This document shows, in pieces, positions 3,001 to 63,989 of a stretch of 64,000 nucleotides of DNA. Position 1 is the first letter of the stretch. Every line of letters begins with the position of its first letter. The DNA is from Escherichia phage VEc20. Position numbers and translations under genes: made by a program. The DNA lies in the sequence record MN022785.1, one strand, 5' to 3'. The notes beneath the pieces were generated by a model. That model saw only the letters and a list, made by a program, of their open reading frames with translations. It was not told the origin of the DNA and ran no database searches.

Positions 3001-3027
3001 CAAAATGAAGAAAGGGGCCGAAGCCCC
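3001..3027 (-). terminator. intrinsic terminator downstream of hoc
   Basis: GGGGC-CGAA-GCCCC (UUCG loop in minus-strand RNA) followed on the minus strand by TTTCTTCATTTT. Confidence 0.55.
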
Positions 3028-3033
3028 TTATGA

Positions 3034-4452
3034 TTATGGATAGGTATAGATGATACCAGTTTCTAAAGCAGTTTTATGAATGATATATCCATTACGCGAT
3101 TCTTGGACATCAACTTCTGGATAGTCTTTCATCATCTTCTGAAGAGTGTAACGATGCAGGTAGTATTTACTATCTGGATCTTCAGTTTTCCAATCTTTAC
3201 CTTCTTCAGTCATTTTTTGAATTTCATCCATAACCCACCAACCGCACCAGATGTAAGCTGAGCTACGGTGTGGAAGAGGATGAACATAAGGTAATTCACC
3301 TTCTGGTTCTGGAGCAACTTTATCAGTTACCTGAACTTGACCTTCTGCCGTAATAGTTTTGCTATCATAATCAGCAGCAGTAACAGTTGCAGTAACTTCA
3401 ATAGTTTGACTTCCAATAGATGAGGTATCAACAGTATATACGTTAGTTGACCCTTCCACAGGAGAAGAATCTTTCTTCCATGAGTAAGTAATTTGTGCTG
3501 CTTCAGGTGCGCCATTAACATTAGCAGTAAATGTAGCCGAAGCATCTTGCTGAACATTAATAGAAGGAGGAGTCAATGTAACCTGTGGATTCATTGTCTT
3601 CTTATTAACTGTCAATGATACTTCATTGGAAGTAACTTCCTTTTCATTATAATTTTCTGCAGTTACTTGGGCTACGCATTTAATTCTTTTTACTCCACTT
3701 GTAGTTGGAGTATAGTTAAATGTAGAGTTAGTTTCTCCACCAACTTGTGAATCATCTACATACCACTGATACGTAGCAGACGCTCCGTCAGGTTGAGAAG
3801 CTAATGCAGCAGTAAATTGAACCGGGGTTCCAATTACTCCAGCAGCAGGACTAGCAGGAGTTACTGCCAAGGTAGTTGTCTGTGTCTTTTTATTAACTGT
3901 CAATGATACTTCATTGGAAGTAACGCTCAGTGCATCATAATCTGTCGCAGTTACTTGAGCTACACACTTAATTTTTTTAACTCCGCTTGTAGTAGGAGTA
4001 TAATTGAATGTAGCAGAAGTTGCTTCGCTCACAGGAGAACCGTCAACGTACCATTGATACGTAGCAGATGCGCCCGATGGCTGTGAAGCTAAGGCAGCAG
4101 TAAATTCAACGGCTGTTCCGATTACTCCTTCTGGAGGACTATTAGGAGTTACAGCTAAGGTAGTTGTTTGTGTCTTATTTTGAACTGTGATAGTTGTACT
4201 AATTTCAGCTGTTTCAGCTTCAGAATCAGGAATAGTATTTGTTGCAACTACCTTAATAGTCTTTTGACCAGCAGGTCCTTTTAATACATAATCAAAAGTT
4301 GCTGCTGATCCTTCTTGGGGAGCATTATCTACGCTCCAAGCATAGGTAATAGTTCCACCTCCAGTTTCACCACTGGGTGTAGCAGTAAACTGCTTGGTTT
4401 CATCAATAACCCCTGTCGGTGTTTTAGGAGTTATATCAACTGTAAAAGTCAT
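3034..4452 (-). CDS. hoc: highly immunogenic outer capsid protein Hoc with an extra Ig-like domain
   Basis: 472-aa ORF starting MTFTVDITPKTPTG with the conserved C-terminal capsid-binding region; two tandem ~96-aa Ig-like repeats of about 85% identity. Confidence 0.85.
   Translation of the reverse strand: MTFTVDITPKTPTGVIDETKQFTATPSGETGGGTITYAWSVDNAPQEGSAATFDYVLKGPAGQKTIKVVATNTIPDSEAETAEISTTITVQNKTQTTTLAVTPNSPPEGVIGTAVEFTAALASQPSGASATYQWYVDGSPVSEATSATFNYTPTTSGVKKIKCVAQVTATDYDALSVTSNEVSLTVNKKTQTTTLAVTPASPAAGVIGTPVQFTAALASQPDGASATYQWYVDDSQVGGETNSTFNYTPTTSGVKRIKCVAQVTAENYNEKEVTSNEVSLTVNKKTMNPQVTLTPPSINVQQDASATFTANVNGAPEAAQITYSWKKDSSPVEGSTNVYTVDTSSIGSQTIEVTATVTAADYDSKTITAEGQVQVTDKVAPEPEGELPYVHPLPHRSSAYIWCGWWVMDEIQKMTEEGKDWKTEDPDSKYYLHRYTLQKMMKDYPEVDVQESRNGYIIHKTALETGIIYTYP
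3601..4176 (-). repeat. tandem in-frame duplication (2 x 288 bp) inside hoc
   Basis: Sequence ttattaactgtcaatgatacttcattggaagtaac recurs at 3602 and 3890 (offset 288 bp); encodes two similar Ig-like domains. Confidence 0.85.
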
Positions 4453-16165: not shown

Positions 16166-16196
16166 TTTGTGTTCCTCATGTTATGTCAGTAAGACT

Positions 16197-16225
16197 ACTA
16201 TAACACAACACGAGGGACTTGTAAA
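16197..16225 (-). promoter_or_regulatory. early promoter (TTTACA-N17-TATAGT)
   Basis: Minus strand GTTTACA-17 bp-TATAGT; part of a 54-bp element (16173-16226) identical to 30449-30502. Confidence 0.55.
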
Positions 16226-16401
16226 CTACATTTTGAACTTTTTAGTACGCGGAATAGGCATGCGTCGATTTTATACTGTTTCATTGTTTGAAGAGCAGTA
16301 TCAAAAACAGCATTAATGACACCAATTGGATTTCCACTCAAGTTTTTAAGCTTAACTAATGATAGTTTCTCATTAACACCTATCATTACGATATGCATCA
16401 T
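16198..16401 (-). CDS. Alt N-terminal paralog fragment (aligns to Alt residues ~65-130)
   Basis: 67-aa ORF MMHIV...TMKQYKIDAC aligning to Alt MMHIVPF...TMRQYKIDAC; ATGA-coupled to the upstream fragment. Confidence 0.5.
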   Translation of the reverse strand: MMHIVMIGVNEKLSLVKLKNLSGNPIGVINAVFDTALQTMKQYKIDACLFRVLKSSKCSLQVPRVVL

Positions 16402-22621: not shown

Positions 22622-22638
22622 AGTATTTTCCTCAGTAA

Positions 22639-22664
22639 GGGGCCGAAGCCCCTCATTTTATTTT
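22639..22664. other. intergenic GC hairpin (GGGGC-CGAA-GCCCC)
   Basis: UUCG-loop hairpin in minus-strand RNA between two early ORFs; the T-run is on the plus side only. Confidence 0.4.
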
Positions 22665-23455: not shown

Positions 23456-23484
23456 ATACTATCACAAAGGAACCATACTGTAAA
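23456..23484 (-). promoter_or_regulatory. early promoter (TTTACA-N17-TAGTAT)
   Basis: Minus strand GTTTACA-17 bp-TAGTAT about 28 nt upstream of the 23428 start. Confidence 0.5.
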
Positions 23485-23504
23485 CAACTTTATGCAATCT
23501 TTGG

Positions 23505-23533
23505 AAAATAAAAAAGGACTCCCGAAGGAGTCC
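23505..23533 (-). terminator. intrinsic terminator (UUCG hairpin plus U-run)
   Basis: GGACTCC-CGAA-GGAGTCC; minus-strand RNA hairpin followed by UUUUUUAUUUU. Confidence 0.6.
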
Positions 23534-30444: not shown

Positions 30445-30472
30445 AAAGTCCTCATGTTATGTCAGTAAGACT

Positions 30473-30501
30473 ACTATAACACAACACGAGGGACTTGTAA
30501 A
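30473..30501 (-). promoter_or_regulatory. early promoter (TTTACA-N17-TATAGT)
   Basis: 54-bp element 30449-30502 identical to 16173-16226, covering -35, -10, leader and RBS. Confidence 0.55.
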
Positions 30502-30505
30502 CAGC

Positions 30506-39876: not shown

Positions 39877-40119
39877 TTAAATAGACTTTTTCACAATTTT
39901 CCAATCAGCTTTAAACTGCTCGACGTCAGAATGGTAAATCCAGAATCCTGCGCTTTCTCCGTCTTCATAAAGAGGACATCCATCACATTCATCTTCCCAT
40001 CCCATGCCACGTAAAAGGTGTTCAGCTTTTTCAACAAGTTCAGAATCTTTACCGATGATATTAAAATACCATTTACCTCTAACTTCTGAATCTTTGATGC
40101 TCTGGCGTTGTAATCTCAT
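39877..40119 (-). CDS. hypothetical protein (frd.2-like)
   Basis: 80-aa ORF. Confidence 0.45.
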   Translation of the reverse strand: MRLQRQSIKDSEVRGKWYFNIIGKDSELVEKAEHLLRGMGWEDECDGCPLYEDGESAGFWIYHSDVEQFKADWKIVKKSI

Positions 40120-40228
40120 TTTATTCTCCTTAGCAAGCTTTAATCAAAAGATATAAACAGACCAACATAACTGCTGCCATAATATAAGGTGCGAACATTT
40201 TCTTTTCTCCATTAGTTTTGATAGGGTA

Positions 40229-40257
40229 ATAGTATCACACTACTACCCTTCTGTAAA
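40229..40257 (-). promoter_or_regulatory. early promoter (TTTACA-N17-TACTAT)
   Basis: Member of the GATAGGGTAATAGTA...TGTAAAC promoter family. Confidence 0.5.
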
Positions 40258-40275
40258 CTACTTTTTGAAAGTTTT

Positions 40276-40623
40276 TCACAAAAGTTCAATGATTTCATCT
40301 ACATTGTTTTCGTCAACAATGCAGTGAATTTTTGTTACGCCAGAAACTTTGTCTTTGACTTCATCTTCTTCAGAAGTCGGTTCTTTATACTCACGAAAAC
40401 AATGAAATTCGTCTTCACAAACGTTAAAGTAAAAATGCTTTCCATTTGCGCATTCAATGTGTTTTATTACTCTAAATCCATCAACAAAGAAAGCTTCTTT
40501 AACTTCAAACCATCCGCCATTTTCTTGAATAATTTTAACTATTGCTGAATTAGAACGTGGGCGATAATTAATAAATGTATCAATAAGTCTTGGAACAAGT
40601 TCATACTTTTTACCGATATACAT
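40276..40623 (-). CDS. hypothetical protein (frd.3-like)
   Basis: 115-aa ORF. Confidence 0.5.
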   Translation of the reverse strand: MYIGKKYELVPRLIDTFINYRPRSNSAIVKIIQENGGWFEVKEAFFVDGFRVIKHIECANGKHFYFNVCEDEFHCFREYKEPTSEEDEVKDKVSGVTKIHCIVDENNVDEIIELL

Positions 40624-40667
40624 TATGTTTTCCTCATTTTAACGGGGCTGTAATAGCCCCTTGATAA

Positions 40668-40895
40668 TTATTGTTCAATCAATCCCATGTAAAATTCTGC
40701 GTCTTCAGAATCCATACCATCACAATATTCATTAGCCATAAAGCGGGTGAGGTCTTCAAGAGGACCTTCAATAACGATTTGAATACTCCAAAACTTAGAA
40801 TCTTGCACGCTTGTGATACTAAGTTCAGGATAACGATTACGAATAATTTCTTCGATATATTCAAAATCAACGATGTCAATATCAACTTTAGCCAT
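40668..40895 (-). CDS. hypothetical acidic protein
   Basis: 75 aa from ATG 40895 (MAKVDIDIV...) with RBS GAGGAAA; the longer supplied ORF would start upstream of its own promoter. Confidence 0.5.
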
Positions 40896-40938
40896 ATTAT
40901 TTTCCTCTTTAATCATCAGCAGTATTGCCGATAGTTGT

Positions 40939-40967
40939 ATAGTACCATGGAAGGACAAGGATGTAAA
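40939..40967 (-). promoter_or_regulatory. early promoter (TTTACA-N17-TACTAT) with A/T-rich UP region
   Basis: Part of cassette 40930-41017, near-identical to 58478-58567 except for the -35/-10 spacer and terminator stem. Confidence 0.55.
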
Positions 40968-40989
40968 CCGTTTTGTGAAAAAATTTTTG

Positions 40990-41017
40990 AAATAAAAAGG
41001 GGACCTCTAGGGTCCCC
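40990..41017 (-). terminator. intrinsic terminator downstream of gene 32
   Basis: GGGGACC...GGTCCCC hairpin followed on the minus strand by TTTTTATTT. Confidence 0.6.
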
Positions 41018-41039
41018 AATTAATTAGTAATATAATCTA

Positions 41040-41945
41040 TTAAAGGTCATTCAAAAGGTCATCTAGGTCCGTGTCATCAGCACTAGATGAACTGCCAGAG
41101 CTTGAGCTCATAAAATCATCTTCAGTTTTTGTATTGAAGTCATCAACATTGAATGCATCCAAATCATCAGCAACTTTATCAGCTTTCTTAGCAGCAGTTG
41201 CAGCAGCACCGCCCATCACAGCAGTTCCCATAACTTGACCGAATTTAGTATTCAGTTCTTCAAATGATTTGAATTTATCTTTAGAAGTCATTTCAGAAAG
41301 GTCAACCATTTGTTCGAACAGTTCTTTCTGGAAAGATTCATCATCAATGTTTGGAATCGCAGATTGATTCAGGAATTTAGATTCATCGTAGTTACTAAAT
41401 CCGGAAACTTGTTTAACTTTCAGTACAAAGTTAGCACCTTCCCACGGACAAGTTACATCAACCGGAGTTTCACCCATTTCAACATCAACCGCAATCATTG
41501 CATTGATTTTATCCCAGATTTTCTTACCGAAACGATATTTAAATACTTTACCTTCATTTTCTGGAGCAGCTGGGTCTTTTACAACAAGAATATTAGCCCA
41601 GTAAGAAGTTTTACGTTTAACAAGACTGTACTCTTTATTGTCAGTGTTGTACAGATCATTTTTACTGATGTACTGACATACTGGGCAAGAATCGTAATCA
41701 CCATGGGTAGATGAACATGTTTCAATATACCATTTACCATTTTTCTTGAAACCGTGATTTACAAGAATTGCGAATGGTGCTTGTTCATCATTTTTAGACG
41801 GAAGAAAACGAATTACTGCTTGACCGTTACCCGCATTATCGAGTTTCAGTTTCCACTCGCCTTTATCTTCAGAAGAAAAACCTTTATTGCCATTCAGTTT
41901 AGCCATTTGTGCAGCAAGTTCAGCAGTAGATTTACGTTTAAACAT
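41040..41945 (-). CDS. 32: single-stranded DNA-binding protein gp32
   Basis: 301-aa [24 protein letters not shown]... with an acidic C-terminal tail. Confidence 0.95.
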
Positions 41946-42012
41946 TTTATTTCCTTTTTAATTTAATTTAATTAACAGTTGGTGCTATGACACTTTACCT
42001 CATAGCTGGCAT
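41946..42012 (-). promoter_or_regulatory. gene 32 translational operator (pseudoknot plus A/U-rich repeat)
   Basis: mRNA leader GCUAUGAGGUAAAGUGUCAUAGCACCAACUGUUAAUUAAAUUAAAUUAAAAAGGAAAUAAA-AUG matches the T4 gene 32 autoregulatory leader. Confidence 0.7.
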
Positions 42013-42632
42013 AATTCGCAATACTCTGGGTCTTCGAGAGGTATCCAACCTAAGTTGAAATACTTTACCATCGATTTAGCAGTTGTATCAGTTATATTTA
42101 TATTACCTTTAACTCTTCGCCATCCAGGAGTTTTACCGTACAGATTAGAGGATAATAATAACACATAATTCTCGTAAGCAATATGAGATAATTTCCAAGA
42201 CTCTATATTAGCTCGTGATGTTTTCCAAGGTCTAAAATCGTCACGGTTCATATAATTAGCCAATCTCATATGCTCTCTAACTTCCGGGTCTTTGGCTGGA
42301 TGAGTTTCACCACTCACACCAAATCCACCACCAGCATATACCAGATTAAAATAGTCTGGATTATCTCTTGCATTTACTTCAAGTTGGTATTTTCGTTCTG
42401 CTTCAATAACATCCAAGTCATCATCAATTTGAATTATTTTAACGCTCGGTTTTTGAAGCATTAGCGCATTCAAAAATCTTTTTTGTTTACATGAGCTCCA
42501 GTATTCCTTTCCGGAAGAGTCATATATTATTCCGTTCTCAAATGAGCAATTTAATTTACTACCGATATAATAGTATGGCGGAGTCTTATTTTTGACACGG
42601 TCTTCAAATGTAAACCAATATACTATATTCAT
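42000..42632 (-). CDS. segG: GIY-YIG homing endonuclease (segG-like)
   Basis: 210-aa ORF with N-terminal IVYWFTF...YYIGSK motif; between genes 59 and 32 as segG is in T4. Confidence 0.6.
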   Translation of the reverse strand: MNIVYWFTFEDRVKNKTPPYYYIGSKLNCSFENGIIYDSSGKEYWSSCKQKRFLNALMLQKPSVKIIQIDDDLDVIEAERKYQLEVNARDNPDYFNLVYAGGGFGVSGETHPAKDPEVREHMRLANYMNRDDFRPWKTSRANIESWKLSHIAYENYVLLLSSNLYGKTPGWRRVKGNINITDTTAKSMVKYFNLGWIPLEDPEYCELCQL

Positions 42633-42633
42633 A

Positions 42634-43287
42634 TCAATACTTGCAAGATTTCACAATTTCAATGAAAACATTTTTAGCTTTCTGTGAATCAATATTTAAA
42701 ATTTTTCTATAAGCCTTTAACTTTATAGAATAATTATTCCAGACTAAATTATCAGTCTGTTCATCGTGTTTATCAATTATATTTAAAAACGAATCAAGCA
42801 AGATAAACGTTTCAAACGAAATTATGTTCGATTGAAGTAGTTTAAAAATATAACTTGATTGAACTTTTGGATTATATTCAAAAATTTCTTTAAAAGCAGA
42901 AACTTCAACTTTTTTACTGAAATAGTAAATGTTGCGAATATCTTCTTCAAACTTAAATTTAATTTGCTTCAAGCGTCCGATATATTCACGATAAAACACA
43001 AGTGCATCAGCGTCAGAGATGTCGCCAATCCAAGCATCCTGGTTAGCAACCAGATTGCTTATAAAGATTAAAGCAAGTTCCTTTAATTTATATTTTTCTG
43101 ATAACTTCTGGAAAAAATACTTATCCCTTCGCTTTTGATAAGCGGCATCAGACACCCGCATGCACCAATTATACTTAATTACATCATACTTTCCATTCAT
43201 ATGTTGTTTTATCATTAAGTATAATTTATAAACTGATTTACCATCAATATATCTTTCACCACCAGCAGGCATGCGGAGTTTAATCAT
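42634..43287 (-). CDS. 59: helicase loader gp59
   Basis: 217-aa ORF, T4 gp59 length and position. Confidence 0.85.
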   Translation of the reverse strand: MIKLRMPAGGERYIDGKSVYKLYLMIKQHMNGKYDVIKYNWCMRVSDAAYQKRRDKYFFQKLSEKYKLKELALIFISNLVANQDAWIGDISDADALVFYREYIGRLKQIKFKFEEDIRNIYYFSKKVEVSAFKEIFEYNPKVQSSYIFKLLQSNIISFETFILLDSFLNIIDKHDEQTDNLVWNNYSIKLKAYRKILNIDSQKAKNVFIEIVKSCKY

Positions 43288-43622
43288 AGTAGAAAATCTA
43301 ATGTATTAGTTTTTTCACAACGAACAACAGAAGGACGTAAAAGATTTTCGTCAATAGCTTCTGACTGAATTTTTTCAATTATACCCGAAGGAATAAATTT
43401 AGCAAATTGAGTTTCAGGAATAGAATTTTCTTCCAAGAATGCTGTTGTAGCTTCAAGATAACTCATTCCAAACTCTTCTACCATTTTTTCAATAATAAAT
43501 CCATTTTCTTGACGATCAAGAAGCTTTGCTATTTCATCCTTTTCTTTCTTGATTGAAAGTTCTTTTTCTGAAAGACCGGTCTCATCGACCGGACGAATAT
43601 CATTTAGAGAAAACTGTGTCAT
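43284..43622 (-). CDS. 33: late transcription co-activator gp33
   Basis: 112 aa from ATG 43622 (MTQFSLNDIRPV...); the supplied ORF starts at an upstream TTG. Confidence 0.7.
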   Translation of the reverse strand: MTQFSLNDIRPVDETGLSEKELSIKKEKDEIAKLLDRQENGFIIEKMVEEFGMSYLEATTAFLEENSIPETQFAKFIPSGIIEKIQSEAIDENLLRPSVVRCEKTNTLDFLL

Positions 43623-43869
43623 AAAGTTCAACTACCTCTTCAGTTTCAGCTTCAAACACATCACGGTTATCTTTATGATACAAAGCTAACAAACGATTAA
43701 ACATCTTACCATCAACGCCAAGTTCATCTTTAGCACGAATTCGAATATCTTTAATCAGTTCATTATAACCGGAAATTTTCAGTTTATGATCAGATGCTTC
43801 TTTAATAAATTTAGCCAAGTCTTCGCCATGGATAGCTTCATCAAATTCAACCATTTCTTTTTTAGCCAT
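43600..43869 (-). CDS. dsbA: dsDNA-binding protein DsbA
   Basis: 89-aa ORF between rnh and gene 33. Confidence 0.65.
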   Translation of the reverse strand: MAKKEMVEFDEAIHGEDLAKFIKEASDHKLKISGYNELIKDIRIRAKDELGVDGKMFNRLLALYHKDNRDVFEAETEEVVELYDTVFSK

Positions 43870-43877
43870 TATTCACC

Positions 43878-44795
43878 TCAAAATTCATTAATGCTATTAG
43901 TTAATTTAGAAAGACCCGCTTTTACAAAATATGAATAAATTTTGCCACGCGGTGGTAATTTATATGAATTATAGTAATTCACAATGTTTGAAGCAATATT
44001 ATCAGGAATATAATCAAAATCAATTAGAACTAAATTTTCTTTATAACGATTATATTCAGATTCTGTGAGAAGCACCTTAGCTTGCTCACGGTCATTAGCA
44101 ATAGCTTCAACGATTGAAGTTTTCATTGAAGGAGTTCGTTCACCTTCAACTCTGGTAAACCAAAAGTCAGATCGTACTTTAACTGAAGCAACGTTATCCT
44201 TTTTGTCGCCCTTAAGGATTTTAGTCATACAGTCAATTTCAGCAGAACCGCTTTTAATTTTAACCCATTTCTTATGCATCGGTGACCATTGCTTAACATT
44301 TGGATATTTGTGAAGCTGTGTAAAGTCACCATCCGATGAAATGATTAAAATCTTATGTCCTTCTAAAGAGAACTTTTTAACAAGAACAGCAATGTGGTCA
44401 TCTGCTTCATACTTATCAATATCCATAACAATGTATGGCATATAAGCTTTCAATTCATCTATAACTTTATGGCTGGATTCAAAATAACCTTCCCAGTCCC
44501 AAGTAGATTCTTCTCGTGCTTTTCCACGGTTTTTCTTGTAATAATACGCGAAATCACGACGCCAATATCCAGATTTCGCGTTATCAATACACAGTACAAT
44601 TTTAGTGTATCCAAGTGTTTTTGCTTTTTTGACATTAAACTTAATTGAGTTCAATATCAAATGACGAACCATTGATAAATTAATTTTTTCTTTATCTGGG
44701 AAGTTTACCAGAGCAGTTGAAAGAGCAATTTGACTAAAGTCAATAAAGCAAATTCCTTCTTTGTAATCTTCATCCAGCATCATTTCTAAATCCAT
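43878..44795 (-). CDS. rnh: RNase H / 5'-3' exonuclease
   Basis: 305 aa from ATG 44795 (MDLEMMLDEDYKEG...) with RBS GAGG; the supplied ORF starts at an upstream TTG. Confidence 0.85.
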   Translation of the reverse strand: MDLEMMLDEDYKEGICFIDFSQIALSTALVNFPDKEKINLSMVRHLILNSIKFNVKKAKTLGYTKIVLCIDNAKSGYWRRDFAYYYKKNRGKAREESTWDWEGYFESSHKVIDELKAYMPYIVMDIDKYEADDHIAVLVKKFSLEGHKILIISSDGDFTQLHKYPNVKQWSPMHKKWVKIKSGSAEIDCMTKILKGDKKDNVASVKVRSDFWFTRVEGERTPSMKTSIVEAIANDREQAKVLLTESEYNRYKENLVLIDFDYIPDNIASNIVNYYNSYKLPPRGKIYSYFVKAGLSKLTNSINEF

Positions 44796-58104: not shown

Positions 58105-58141
58105 TTTAATCTCCGTTTCAGTTCATTTATTTGATAGGTCT

Positions 58142-58169
58142 ATAGTATCATGTTTAAAGCAGAAGTAAA
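58142..58169 (-). promoter_or_regulatory. early promoter (TTTACT-N16-TACTAT) for motA
   Basis: Contains the family-conserved GATAGGTCTATAGTATCA segment. Confidence 0.5.
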
Positions 58170-58209
58170 CACTTTTTTGCACTCTTTTTCAAGAGCTCTA
58201 ATAAAGTAC

Positions 58210-58437
58210 TTACTTAATGTTCAGATTACGAACTTCGATTTCGTCTTCATGGGCAAAATCAAACTGTTTGAATTCTGTGTCACCTTTAAATTTAAAAATC
58301 ATTGTGAAGAAAGTCAGAACACCAGGTTTTTCTTCACGAACTCCACAGATATCATATTCAATACCATCTACAACCAGTTTGTTAGCAGTCAGAGCATTTT
58401 TAGCTTTAACGATTTCGTTTTCGATTTTAAATTTCAT
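58210..58437 (-). CDS. hypothetical protein
   Basis: 75-aa ORF driven by the early promoter at 58487-58515. Confidence 0.5.
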   Translation of the reverse strand: MKFKIENEIVKAKNALTANKLVVDGIEYDICGVREEKPGVLTFFTMIFKFKGDTEFKQFDFAHEDEIEVRNLNIK

Positions 58438-58486
58438 TTTTTGTATCTCCGGGTTGTTTGTTTCAGTTCATTTATTTGATAGTTGT

Positions 58487-58515
58487 ATAGTACCACAGTA
58501 TGCTTTGGTTGTAAA
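58487..58515 (-). promoter_or_regulatory. early promoter (TTTACA-N17-TACTAT) with UP region
   Basis: Cassette 58478-58567 shares the -10 and UP/-35 flanks with 40930-41017. Confidence 0.55.
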
Positions 58516-58539
58516 CCGTTTTGTGAAAAAATTTTTGAA

Positions 58540-58567
58540 ATAAAAAAGGGAGAGCCTCGGCTCTCCC
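58540..58567 (-). terminator. intrinsic terminator
   Basis: GGGAGAGCC-TC-GGCTCTCCC followed on the minus strand by TTTTTATTT. Confidence 0.6.
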
Positions 58568-58572
58568 TAAAA

Positions 58573-58722
58573 TTACTGCATGACTGTGATAACTGTCATG
58601 ATAACACGTTGAATTCCGAACGCAAGAAGACCTCCTGCTACGGCAGGAACAACACCTAAACCCGCCAGTAAAATGCCACCAGATACTAATGCAGCGCTTG
58701 TGATACCAATGAATGGACTCAT
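58573..58722 (-). CDS. small hydrophobic membrane protein (49 aa)
   Basis: Hand-translated MSPFIGITSAALVSGGILLAGLGVVPAVAGGLLAFGIQRVIMTVITVMQ; ATGA overlap with the gene 52 stop. Confidence 0.5.
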   Translation of the reverse strand: MSPFIGITSAALVSGGILLAGLGVVPAVAGGLLAFGIQRVIMTVITVMQ

Positions 58723-61597: not shown

Positions 61598-61625
61598 TTT
61601 GTGTTCCTCCGTAGTTGATAGGGTA

Positions 61626-61654
61626 ATAGTACCACGGAGGAACAGTCTTGTAAA
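61626..61654 (-). promoter_or_regulatory. early promoter (TTTACA-N17-TACTAT)
   Basis: GATAGGGTAATAGTACCA family member. Confidence 0.5.
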
Positions 61655-61839: not shown

Positions 61840-62103
61840 TCATAGTTCAATCTCAGCGATTTTCATTTCATTATTGTTAATAGCATTTTTAAGACTATCC
61901 GAAAGAATTACATTCCAGTGGTCATTCATATGACCATTAACTAAGCGTGTAATTTCTTCGGGAGTTGAAAAATAAGGCGTATCAGACTCCCAATGCGATA
62001 ATCCTAAGCGAGTATAAATCATGCCTTCATCATCGCTAGAATATTCAACTGACACAAACTCATCAGTTATTTTATGTTTAGCGTAATAAAATTTAAATTT
62101 CAT
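61840..62103 (-). CDS. hypothetical protein (87 aa)
   Basis: From ATG 62103 with RBS GGAG. Confidence 0.5.
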   Translation of the reverse strand: MKFKFYYAKHKITDEFVSVEYSSDDEGMIYTRLGLSHWESDTPYFSTPEEITRLVNGHMNDHWNVILSDSLKNAINNNEMKIAEIEL

Positions 62104-62137
62104 TTTACTCTCCAAATCCGTATCAGTTGATAGTTGT

Positions 62138-62166
62138 ATAGTACCACGGTCCTTGTGGTATGTAAA
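62138..62166 (-). promoter_or_regulatory. early promoter (TTTACA-N17-TACTAT)
   Basis: Third copy of the GATAGTTGTATAGTACCA cassette (62129-62190). Confidence 0.5.
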
Positions 62167-62183
62167 CCATTTTGTGAAATTTT

Positions 62184-62741
62184 TTAAATGGAAAGATACC
62201 ATCCGCTGTAGTTGCTTTTTCTTACAACCTTACGAAGGTCTTCTCTATCACCGATGAACTTCGGAGTGTATTGGATGACACCTGGATGAATTTCTTTAGT
62301 GTTGAATATAATTATACAGTCAGCGACTTGATGATTTAGAATGGGCCCTAGATTTATTCCAGAACCATATGGATACTCTCCGCTGCATCCTGTTGTCACC
62401 GAAATCCAACGTGAGTCAGTTTGATGTGTCTTAACTTCTACACGAAGCCCGCAGTATCTTGGATGCGCCAATACATCCCATGCATATGTGTACGGATCAT
62501 CGACATCTTCTTGACCTTTGTTAACATACCCGCTCAGCCAATCTGCTACAAAAAACTCTGCGTACACAGCGATACGGCATCTTTCGATAACTTCTGCCTT
62601 ATCCTGATTTGGGTTTTGTTTTAAAGAGTATCTTGCAGTATCAACAATTTTGACCTTCATTTCACTAGTCAAGTCACTGTTCGATAGGGTAAATGTCGGA
62701 ATCTGAAATAGTCTCTGTAACCCCGGATTCGTTTTCTGCAT
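62184..62741 (-). CDS. denB: endonuclease IV-like protein
   Basis: 185-aa ORF, T4 DenB length, between ndd and rIIB. Confidence 0.6.
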   Translation of the reverse strand: MQKTNPGLQRLFQIPTFTLSNSDLTSEMKVKIVDTARYSLKQNPNQDKAEVIERCRIAVYAEFFVADWLSGYVNKGQEDVDDPYTYAWDVLAHPRYCGLRVEVKTHQTDSRWISVTTGCSGEYPYGSGINLGPILNHQVADCIIIFNTKEIHPGVIQYTPKFIGDREDLRKVVRKSNYSGWYLSI

Positions 62742-62800: not shown

Positions 62801-62823
62801 TAAAACAAAAGGGCCGAAGCCCT
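62801..62823 (-). terminator. UUCG hairpin with U-run
   Basis: AGGGC-CGAA-GCCCT; minus-strand RNA hairpin followed by UUUUGUUUU; the same hairpin recurs at 63038. Confidence 0.45.
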
Positions 62824-62827
62824 TATT

Positions 62828-63022: not shown

Positions 63023-63037
63023 AATTTTCCTCAGTTA

Positions 63038-63051
63038 AGGGCCGAAGCCCT
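63038..63051. other. intergenic UUCG hairpin
   Basis: AGGGC-CGAA-GCCCT directly after the rIIB stop. Confidence 0.4.
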
Positions 63052-63989
63052 TATTTAAATTGTTCAGTAACGTCTTCAACTACTTCGTATTGGCAGGTAC
63101 GCATTTTAGCATCGTTGTAATCAATCGGAATTGATACTACATCACGCGGATGTACTTTAACTTTTACAACTCGGCTAGTTGAACTGCCAAAGTGACGAAT
63201 ATAAGATTTAGAACACACATGCAGACCGCGAGAACAAGTTTGTGTATCATCGTCATTCACACGAGTACGTGGCATTTTAACTACTTTACCAGGGCTGTTA
63301 TCAAAAGTATTTGAATGACAGTCAAAGTAATTGCTGCGAACTACTTTCCAAGCATAGAAGTAACCGTCTTCTGTAATTTCAATATCGTTTGCTACCAAGA
63401 AATCAAAGAGTCGAGATACCGCTTTTTGGCTTGGGTTTTCCAACAGATTTTCCAAGAACGGAAAATAGAATTCAAAGTTTTCGCCTTTTTCCATCGAGTC
63501 AAGAATACGATCAACCAAACCAGATCGCAATTCAATATTTTGATAGAACAAGCTTCCACCTTCAATTCGAACATCGCCGGAAATATATTTTTCAACAGCG
63601 CGACGAACATTAATTTTTTGTGCCGCTTCTTCCAACTTATCCGCTACAAGCAGATTAAGAATTTCCTGGAAGTTTGAATGAGTATTAGGAGTTGCGTTAT
63701 AAGTTACACCGTCAACAGTAATTGAAATGAATTTTTTAGATGCATTCCAAATAATGTCAGATTTAGCAACTGGAGCAATAACTGCATCGCTATTAACTTT
63801 AACTGTAATGTCACCGCTAATAGTAACTTTAGAGCGTTCTGCTTCTTCAGCATTTTTCAAAACACGACGGATTGTGTCAACCGATACACCTTGCCAATCA
63901 GCCAATTCCTGTTGGGTGTAATTACCACTTGAATACAGCTTAACAATTTCAGCTTGTTCGTTTTTGGTCAGGCATTTAATATTGTACAT
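63051..63989 (-). CDS. rIIB: rIIB protein
   Basis: 312-aa ORF, T4 rIIB length, at the end of the early array. Confidence 0.8.
   Translation of the reverse strand: MYNIKCLTKNEQAEIVKLYSSGNYTQQELADWQGVSVDTIRRVLKNAEEAERSKVTISGDITVKVNSDAVIAPVAKSDIIWNASKKFISITVDGVTYNATPNTHSNFQEILNLLVADKLEEAAQKINVRRAVEKYISGDVRIEGGSLFYQNIELRSGLVDRILDSMEKGENFEFYFPFLENLLENPSQKAVSRLFDFLVANDIEITEDGYFYAWKVVRSNYFDCHSNTFDNSPGKVVKMPRTRVNDDDTQTCSRGLHVCSKSYIRHFGSSTSRVVKVKVHPRDVVSIPIDYNDAKMRTCQYEVVEDVTEQFK

Follow-up and report, generated by a model that had tools for sequence, protein, structure and literature searches.

Three sites on the minus strand of the window (the whole 64,000-nucleotide stretch of Escherichia phage VEc20 analyzed here, accession number MN022785.1), referred to as A, B, and C, belong to a family of cassettes that is best read as early-promoter and terminator modules kept alike both by selection and by ectopic homologous exchange (probability roughly 85%). 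Comparison across T4-like genomes demonstrates exchange between cassettes insofar as it can be traced in sequence, and part of the conservation of the shared blocks must be plain purifying selection; the phage recombination system (UvsX and gp46/47) is the probable agent of the exchange. A more specific proposal, for which the odds appear about even, is that the 17-bp promoter spacers are discrete transferable alleles that short-patch ectopic gene conversion (with tracts of ∼13 to 15 up to ∼70 nt) copies among at least six loci up to ∼90 kb apart. The promoter of frd.3 would be a frequent recipient, with four or five alleles, among them three that usually belong to other loci, and the T4 early promoters would form a family under concerted evolution.

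The window is evidently of Tequatrovirus (T4-like) origin, judging from its matches: positions 40000 to 44000 are ∼99% identical to Tequatrovirus members Escherichia phage a15, Shigella phage JK08, and Yersinia phage PYps35T, and several hundred T4-like records match this same interval. The gene order between ∼40000 and 64000 corresponds to the T4 segment from td/frd to rIIB when set against the annotated JK08 and T4 records, JK08 extends the shared order back to DNA ligase, and the early and middle genes of this region are on the minus strand. The T4 orthologues of A, B, and C lie upstream of frd.3, motA, and ndd.6, respectively. In total, ∼30 related genomes and contigs were compared, including a 22-kb segment in nine further phages, locus A alone in eight lower-identity records, and ES12 as a whole, unannotated relative; cassettes were assigned to loci by their unique outer flanks. 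Exact matches to the family were also collected from IMG/VR and metagenome contigs, and as the IMG/VR exact-pattern scan gave only 7 loci, the census is based instead on GenBank phage records and the metagenome scan.

The three sites form one 74-nt repeat family in a repeat search, the other two copies being 86% and 62% identical to the reference one. An 18-mer (GATAGTTGTATAGTACCA) is exact at 40930, 58478, and 62129 and recurs with 3 mismatches at 58133 (4 matches versus 0.07 expected), and a 36-mer (GTAAACCGTTTTGTGAAAAAATTTTTGAAATAAAAA) is exact at 40963-40998 and 58511-58546 (0.00 expected). These blocks bear out the initial annotation, made from the sequence alone, which had described cassettes at 40930-41017 and 58478-58567 with identical −10 and UP/−35 flanks, a differing 15-bp spacer, and differing terminator stems: only 6 of the 15 positions between the exact blocks match in A and B, and the two stem-loops are unlike in sequence while both fold as intrinsic terminators. 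Its third copy, at 62129-62190, holds for the −10-side 18-mer, which is exact, but the upstream block is present only in an indel-containing version and there is no stem-loop. Related variants had also been placed at three further sites, two of which share GATAGGGTAATAGTA exactly (40220-40234 and 61617-61631), whereas the site at 58125-58170 reads GATAGGTCTATAGTA, with 3 mismatches to that sequence, and is a looser relative. The features are collected in Table 1.

TABLE 1 Predicted promoters, terminators, and adjacent reading frames of the cassette family in the VEc20 window
Feature	Coordinates	Strand	Sequence or allele	Remarks
frd.1 promoter, variant	40220..40257	minus	TTTACA-N17-TACTAT-taccctatc	Overlaps frd.2 end; no stem-loop
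A, conserved start-site region	40930..40938	minus	ACAACTATC	
A, −10 hexamer	40939..40944	minus	TACTAT	
A, 17-bp spacer	40945..40961	minus	tccttgtccttccaTGG; allele a1	End is the TGn extended −10
A, −35 hexamer	40962..40967	minus	TTTACA	Preceded by G
A, T-run merging into A/T-rich UP-like block	40968..40998	minus		With −35, forms the 36-nt block common to B
A, intrinsic terminator of gene 32	40999..41017	minus	GGGGACC-CTAGA-GGTCCCC	Fold of −14.3 kcal/mol
motA early promoter	58133..58169	minus	TTTACT-N16-TACTAT-agacctatc	Looser family member, without strong stem-loop
75-aa ORF	58210..58437	minus	phrog_10955	Downstream of predicted promoter B
B, promoter block including UP-like block	58478..58546	minus		Upstream block and −35 as in A
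B, start region	58478-58486	minus	ACAACTATC	
B, −10	58487-58492	minus	TACTAT	
B, spacer	58493-58509	minus	accaaagcatactgtgg; allele b1	
B, −35	58510-58515	minus	TTTACA	
B, intrinsic terminator	58547..58568	minus	AGGGAGAGCC-GA-GGCTCTCCCT	−20.1 kcal/mol, z = −4.8
ndd.4-side gene promoter, variant	61617..61654	minus	TTTACA-N17-TACTAT-taccctatc	No strong stem-loop
87-aa ORF	61840..62103	minus	phrog_2390	Downstream of predicted promoter C
C, promoter only	62129..62190	minus		Starts at denB stop codon
C, start region	62129-62137	minus	ACAACTATC	
C, −10	62138-62143	minus		
C, −35	62161-62166	minus		
C, spacer		minus	taccacaaggaccgtgg; allele c	

Cassettes A and B are intergenic and combine a terminator with a promoter, as predicted from T4 homology and sequence motifs, on which the assignment to early expression is also based. 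The stem-loop of A directly follows the stop codon of gene 32, as judged from the homologous JK08 and T4 sequences, with 7 pairs plus a T-run in a terminator scan and the U-run sequence TTTTTATTT on its 3′ side; the cassette separates gene 32 from frd.3, whose 5′UTR, Shine-Dalgarno sequence, and ATG (∼40896) follow the start region. Cassette B lies between a 49-aa ORF (58573..58722), which itself comes after gene 52, and the 75-aa ORF; its terminator, 3′ of the 49-aa ORF, has 9 pairs in the scan (a 9-bp stem) and is followed by TTTTTTATTT. Both terminator sites are also annotated as terminators in other records, and in T4 the same cassette B is directly upstream of motA. The upstream block of C overlaps the 3′ end of denB (stop at ∼62184) and is related to the A/B block, with an indel. 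C and the promoters at 40257, 61654, and 58169 are promoter-only "half" elements, at which a stable stem-loop was sought and the folds proved no better than those of shuffled sequences. An Rfam scan of 40000 to 64000 returned no family match and thus gives no sign of a known RNA element that would explain the conservation.

The promoters share a common build, with an A/T-rich upstream region (tttttatttcaaaaattttttcacaaaacgg in A and B, ccatttaaaaaatttcacaaaatgg in C), GTTTACA, a 17-bp spacer ending in TGG, and TACTAT, followed by a Shine-Dalgarno sequence and ATG. The TTTACA-N17-TACTAT core occupies 40967-40939, 58515-58487, and 62166-62138, and a TGn extended −10 is present in all three. The initial annotation had suggested an alignment of such minus-strand sites and had named promoter-function constraint, with no excess identity, as the explanation that would undo its reading. 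When 13 early-type promoters on the minus strand of the window are aligned in register, the flank identity of A and B is the highest of all pairs at 61 of 82 positions, against an all-pairs mean of 37.5 (standard deviation, 6.3), and promoter consensus alone is therefore insufficient to account for it. Elsewhere the sharing involves other blocks: over the 31 positions that lead from the −10 into the 5′UTR, the motA promoter and B agree at 29, while their upstream blocks differ, and the promoters at 16225 and 30501 are identical in the spacer, −10, and UTR, though not in the upstream block. The members are mosaics and make up a tighter subfamily within the early-promoter class; genome-wide, this subfamily evidently includes at least seven loci (in T4 terms, the promoters of frd.3, motA, ndd.6, nrdC.10, imm.1, e.8, and nrdC.8). 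In ES12, exact in-register runs between members reach 56 nt (B-D), 40 nt (E-F), 37 nt (A-B), and 34 nt (C-G).

Spacers are distributed across phages in the manner of movable alleles. T4 has the same B and C spacers as the window, but its A spacer is wholly different (agcataaagctttatgg) within nearly identical flanks (a T4 record is 92.3% identical over a 166-nt query at locus A), and this replacement of an entire spacer excludes point mutation as its cause. At A, replacement between phages involves the spacer: allele a1 is common to most, a2 is present in T4 and Lutter, and pSe_SNUABM_01 has a fifth spacer, a3. The spacer usually found at locus B (b1) is present at locus A in Solly, UFV-AREG1, and metagenome contigs OIWM and ERZ1673747, and that usually found at locus C (c) is present there in AUBRB02, teqhad, pSs-1, CJY920, and contigs OBRH and MAVG; in pSs-1, CJY920, and UFV-AREG1 the c or b1 spacer at this locus carries point changes. 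Approximate counts at locus A, taken from BLAST identity bands (at least 95% identity to each 166-nt allele query) rather than from read-out sequences, are 315 for a1, 83 for a2, 69 for b1, and 46 for c among ∼500 records.

The same spacers recur at other loci. At locus B, on the motA side, b1 is almost universal, with a2 in GADU22, and at locus C, after denB, c or a one-base variant of it occurs in every genome examined. The nrdC.10 promoter, located between nrdC.11 and nrdC.10 and with its own terminator, usually has a2, including in T4, so that the T4 frd.3 and nrdC.10 promoters, ∼91 kb apart, have one spacer in common with near-identical flanks; in ES12 it instead has b1, within a 56-nt exact run in common with locus B. 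The imm.1 and e.8 promoters have a1-like spacers, spacers of the agactgttcttc type, and intermediates between both. Two further ideas were set aside. A T/C variant in the upstream block, read as T in cassettes A and B of T4 and as C in both cassettes of the window, had pointed to concerted evolution of that position, but pSe and GADU22 are mixed. SegG cleavage in the neighboring gene 32 was considered as a cause of the frequent conversion at locus A, and the presence or absence of segG has no obvious link to the allele at locus A among 11 annotated genomes.

These patterns can be accommodated in a simple scheme. The intrinsic terminators of A and B would end the upstream transcription unit, with the T-run continuing into the A/T-rich UP-like region, and host sigma-70 RNA polymerase would use the A, B, and C promoters straight after infection, giving predicted transcripts of frd.3 from A, of the 75-aa ORF and motA from B, and of the ORFs after denB from C. 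Near-identity of the blocks would be maintained by promoter function together with ectopic homologous recombination between family members. Recombination in T4 works on homologies shorter than 50 bp. Short-patch gene conversion with end points within the identical blocks would move whole spacers from locus to locus and generate mosaics of upstream block, spacer, start region, and 5′UTR. Since end points can be placed only inside identical blocks, the tracts are at least 13 to 15 nt and at most ∼70 nt. All members have the same orientation, and a reciprocal crossover between distant members would probably delete tens of kilobases with essential genes, leaving conversion-type products as the only ones likely to survive. 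At locus A, the exchanged unit is a short patch, the spacer, and not a gene, and no gene-content difference was seen directly at this site.

One alternative is that promoter function alone is responsible, with every flank position needed, the spacers drifting freely, and no recombination between cassettes. T4 early promoters do have a known extended consensus beyond the −35 and −10 (PMC2988021), GTTTAC, a TG-type extended −10, and a "..ctatc"-like start recur to some degree throughout the window's 13 early-type promoters, and the B and C spacers are stable across most genomes. Yet the exact 36-mer is not required for function, since the upstream blocks of other early promoters in the window are quite different, and neither drift nor convergence can yield identical 17-nt spacers at nonorthologous loci, as seen both across phages and within T4 and ES12, or replace the whole spacer at locus A between phages that are otherwise near-identical there; this explanation is accordingly very unlikely. 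Another source of mixed cassettes would be misassembly, in which the assembly of short reads joins repeats of 36 nt and 18 to 24 nt through a wrong 15-nt spacer. The repeat-unique-repeat layout could confuse small-k assembly, and many of the database genomes are short-read assemblies of unstated quality, with ES12 and CJY920 marked UNVERIFIED. Against this, a2 stands at both frd.3 and nrdC.10 in the reference record for T4, the non-a1 alleles are each found in tens of independent records, and a converted copy can have acquired point changes of its own that the presumed donor in that contig lacks. In MAVG, for instance, C reads taccacaaggactgtgg, and the converted copy at A, which reads tacaacaaggactatgg, differs from it by two private changes. 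On these three grounds assembly artefact was rejected, and it would be surprising in the extreme.

Exchange could in principle be the work of a dedicated, sequence-specific system, either integron-like or dependent on a protein that recognizes GC-rich stem-loops. Arbiol et al. suggested a possible specific DNA-binding protein at GGGG...CCCC stems (PMC2839356), the block shared by A, B, and nrdC.10 begins exactly at the 3′ foot of the GC-rich hairpin, and the orientation of the hairpin loop flips between phages. The end points of exchange vary, however, involving the upstream block only, the spacer with the −10 and UTR, or the UTR only, and some spacers are intermediate between two types, suggesting crossovers within the spacer. 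Different pairs that share different blocks, together with these intermediates, indicate variable crossover points, as in general homologous recombination, and argue against a fixed site. C and the variant promoters, moreover, participate without any stem-loop, and homologies of under 50 bp are generally known to suffice for T4 recombination, a point that Arbiol et al. (2010, PMC2839356) also make. A dedicated system is thus highly improbable, and selection combined with general homologous exchange is the favored reading.

Movement of an inner promoter segment without its neighboring genes provides a clean natural marker for ectopic gene conversion, and one that could be used to gauge the rate, distance, and direction of conversion in phage populations. 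The allelic series could also probe whether spacer sequence matters in very strong promoters; if the proposal of transferable spacers is true, these phages provide a natural spacer-swap series in otherwise constant contexts, and the spacers might tune promoter strength or Alt responsiveness.

Beside cassettes B and C, the genomes also differ in gene content. The 75-aa ORF, which cassette B and the motA promoter bracket, varies among the 12 genomes compared: the window, JK08, ACG-C40, GADU22, and ES12 have it, and T4, RB32, pSe, phiD1, e11/2, AUBRB02, and AndreasVesalius lack it. A 36-nt direct repeat flanks it (58115-58150 and 58460-58495), and a search for a simple crossover or excision junction of these repeats gave no single-piece match, the ORF being present in all of the best 30 records. 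The T4-type arrangement was considered as a simple excision product and rejected, as the T4 5′UTR differs and resembles those of other family members; the history of the ORF is thus more complex than one excision. The slot after C contains one of two divergent versions of the 87-aa ORF, an unrelated ORF of 68 aa (RB32), or nothing (T4), and it is bordered upstream by the cassette UTR and ATG and downstream by a short AAATGAAA repeat, with no second cassette. Cassette-to-cassette deletion does not account for the T4 arrangement lacking the 87-aa ORF, in which the junction is an 8-nt microhomology (AAATGAAA) inside the ORF. Cassettes B and C evidently border variable DNA, as the model of promoter-early stem-loop (PeSL) elements proposes, and not every event is an exchange between two cassettes, a point that is also made by Comeau, Arbiol, and Krisch (2014, PMC4122927).

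The cassettes accordingly are an already known kind of element, the PeSL, with its defining features present save for the stem-loop at C and the variants. The initial annotation had noted the resemblance to PeSL modules proposed to mediate shuffling in T4-type genomes, and this is supported in that the sites fit the consensus TTTACW-N17-TAYWAT given for phages PST and T4 (PMC4122927) and both exchange and gene-content differences are seen; the full module applies to A and B, which have a stem-loop, but C and the GATAGGG variants are promoters only. The PeSLs of T4 and PST have the same order of elements (stem-loop, A/T-rich region, −35, N17, −10, Shine-Dalgarno sequence, and ATG), occur in the same phage group, and are assigned the same proposed role in homologous exchange, and an exchange at ndd.4/ndd.5 between T4 and PST is illustrated for the same region (PMC4122927); A, B, and C are likened to the PST PeSLs by layout and consensus. 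That work concerns gene insertion, deletion, and replacement, whereas here the 17-bp spacer also moves, and the passages of Comeau 2014 consulted here (PMC4122927) contain no mention of spacer movement among distant members. The words "spacer" and "gene conversion" are absent from the text of Arbiol 2010 (PMC2839356) in a word search, and a literature search on gene conversion among T4 early promoters returned nothing relevant, as one on the mapping of T4 start sites returned nothing usable. Spacer hopping between loci adds modestly to the PeSL model, from which it follows naturally, and lends it support. The comparison of many genomes confirms T4-like promoter-terminator modules as both regulatory signals and short portable homologies, by way of which the very active phage recombination system would reshuffle DNA, and the current picture of T4 biology is unchanged by these results.

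The PeSLs of RB49 and phi1 (Arbiol et al., 2010, PMC2839356), on which the element was defined before its extension to T4 and PST, likewise combine a strong early promoter with a terminator stem-loop in variable regions, flank small ORFs, and form chimeras by recombination, with crossovers that were mapped to varying points within the element. They have near-perfect TTGACA and TATAAT boxes, often with the stem-loop between or over them, in contrast to the GTTTACA, TACTAT, and upstream stem-loop seen here, and mini-circles were shown experimentally for RB49/phi1. T4 early promoters have the same UP, −35, TGn, and −10 architecture, with additional consensus regions (Hinton, 2010, PMC2988021), and include the orthologues of A, B, and C upstream of frd.3, motA, and ndd.6. 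Whereas that class is defined by function and consensus, the cassettes are a tighter subfamily with exact blocks and shared spacers, and so go beyond what consensus alone predicts. The internal protein (IP) gene cassettes of T-even phages (Repoila et al., 1994, as described in PMC2839356) similarly consist of variable small genes bounded by conserved T4-type early promoters, although they are at other loci and have weak stem-loops, whereas those predicted as terminators at A and B are strong and GC-rich.

Beyond the cassettes that link the gene 32 terminator to the frd.3 early promoter (locus A) and a terminator to the early promoter upstream of motA (locus B), the window carries two early-type promoters of the form TTTACA-N17-TATAGT that together constitute a perfect direct repeat. 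Their -35 hexamers, spacers, -10 hexamers, and 5'UTRs up to the Shine-Dalgarno sequence are identical and their upstream blocks differ; the genes they would drive are a 96-aa ORF in one case and, in the other, a 168-aa ORF located where alc lies. The two promoters are a further mosaic pair of the same kind as the cassette family. A further complete terminator and early-promoter cassette is also present, predicted to drive a 110-aa ORF and having an upstream block akin to those of the GATAGGG promoter variants.

Coordinates of promoter, terminator, repeat, and ORF features in the window
Feature	Coordinates	Description	Detected by
Direct repeat	16173-16226; 30449-30502	54 nt, perfect; copies 14 kb apart	Repeat search and promoter alignment
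Complete cassette	23456-23533	Hairpin GGACTCC-TTCG-GGAGTCC, then T-run, then TTTACA-N17-TAGTAT	
Gene 32 terminator (A)	40999-41017	Loop CTAGA or TCTAG	
B terminator	58547-58568	Loop CCGAGG or CCTCGG	
ORF after cassette C	61840-62103	87 aa	
GC-rich hairpin family	3009-3031; 22634-22656; 62805-62827; 63033-63055	(A)AGGGGCC-GAAG-CCCCTT(T)	Repeat search and terminator scan
Tandem direct repeat	3595-4170	288 nt, two copies, 79% identity	Repeat search

Comparison of the window with sequences L023-L025, L001, and L011-L017 shows that the terminator loops at A and B each have two orientations, mirror images of one another, depending on the phage, and that at both terminators the entire palindrome is inverted between the two. 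Such inversions are the pattern expected of a hairpin 'flip' through template switching, and loop orientation does not track with spacer allele in the phages compared. Among the spacer alleles, which lie between -35 and -10, a2 (agCATAAAGCTTTATGg) alone is palindromic, with a HindIII site lying inside its perfect palindrome of 14 nt; this allele is carried by T4 (L002, 2352-2369), Lutter, GADU22, and the nrdC.10 promoter (L062).

When the window is compared with AndreasVesalius and JK08, two versions of the 87-aa ORF that follows the promoter after denB (cassette C) can be distinguished, and they clearly diverge from each other. Because each version has its own 5'UTR type and the surrounding flanks are near-identical, the sequences suggest allelic replacement and not gradual divergence.

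Variation is also evident in the promoter upstream regions. The lengths of the A- and T-runs in the A and B upstream blocks differ strongly among phages (TOPO13, AndreasVesalius, and AUBRB02), two examples being 13 A at B in AndreasVesalius and 13 T at A in TOPO13. These differences, which would displace the upstream region relative to -35, could reflect either true slippage or homopolymer sequencing error. At locus B of JK08 (L001, around 38257) the -35 region reads GGTTACA in place of GGTTTACA, and this loss of one T is either a homopolymer sequencing error or a natural promoter-down variant.

Two other types of repeat are present in the window. The GC-rich hairpins are terminator-like when read on either strand, and two copies, 228 nt apart, bracket a small ORF between denB and rIIB. 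The tandem repeat is probably a duplicated coding segment.
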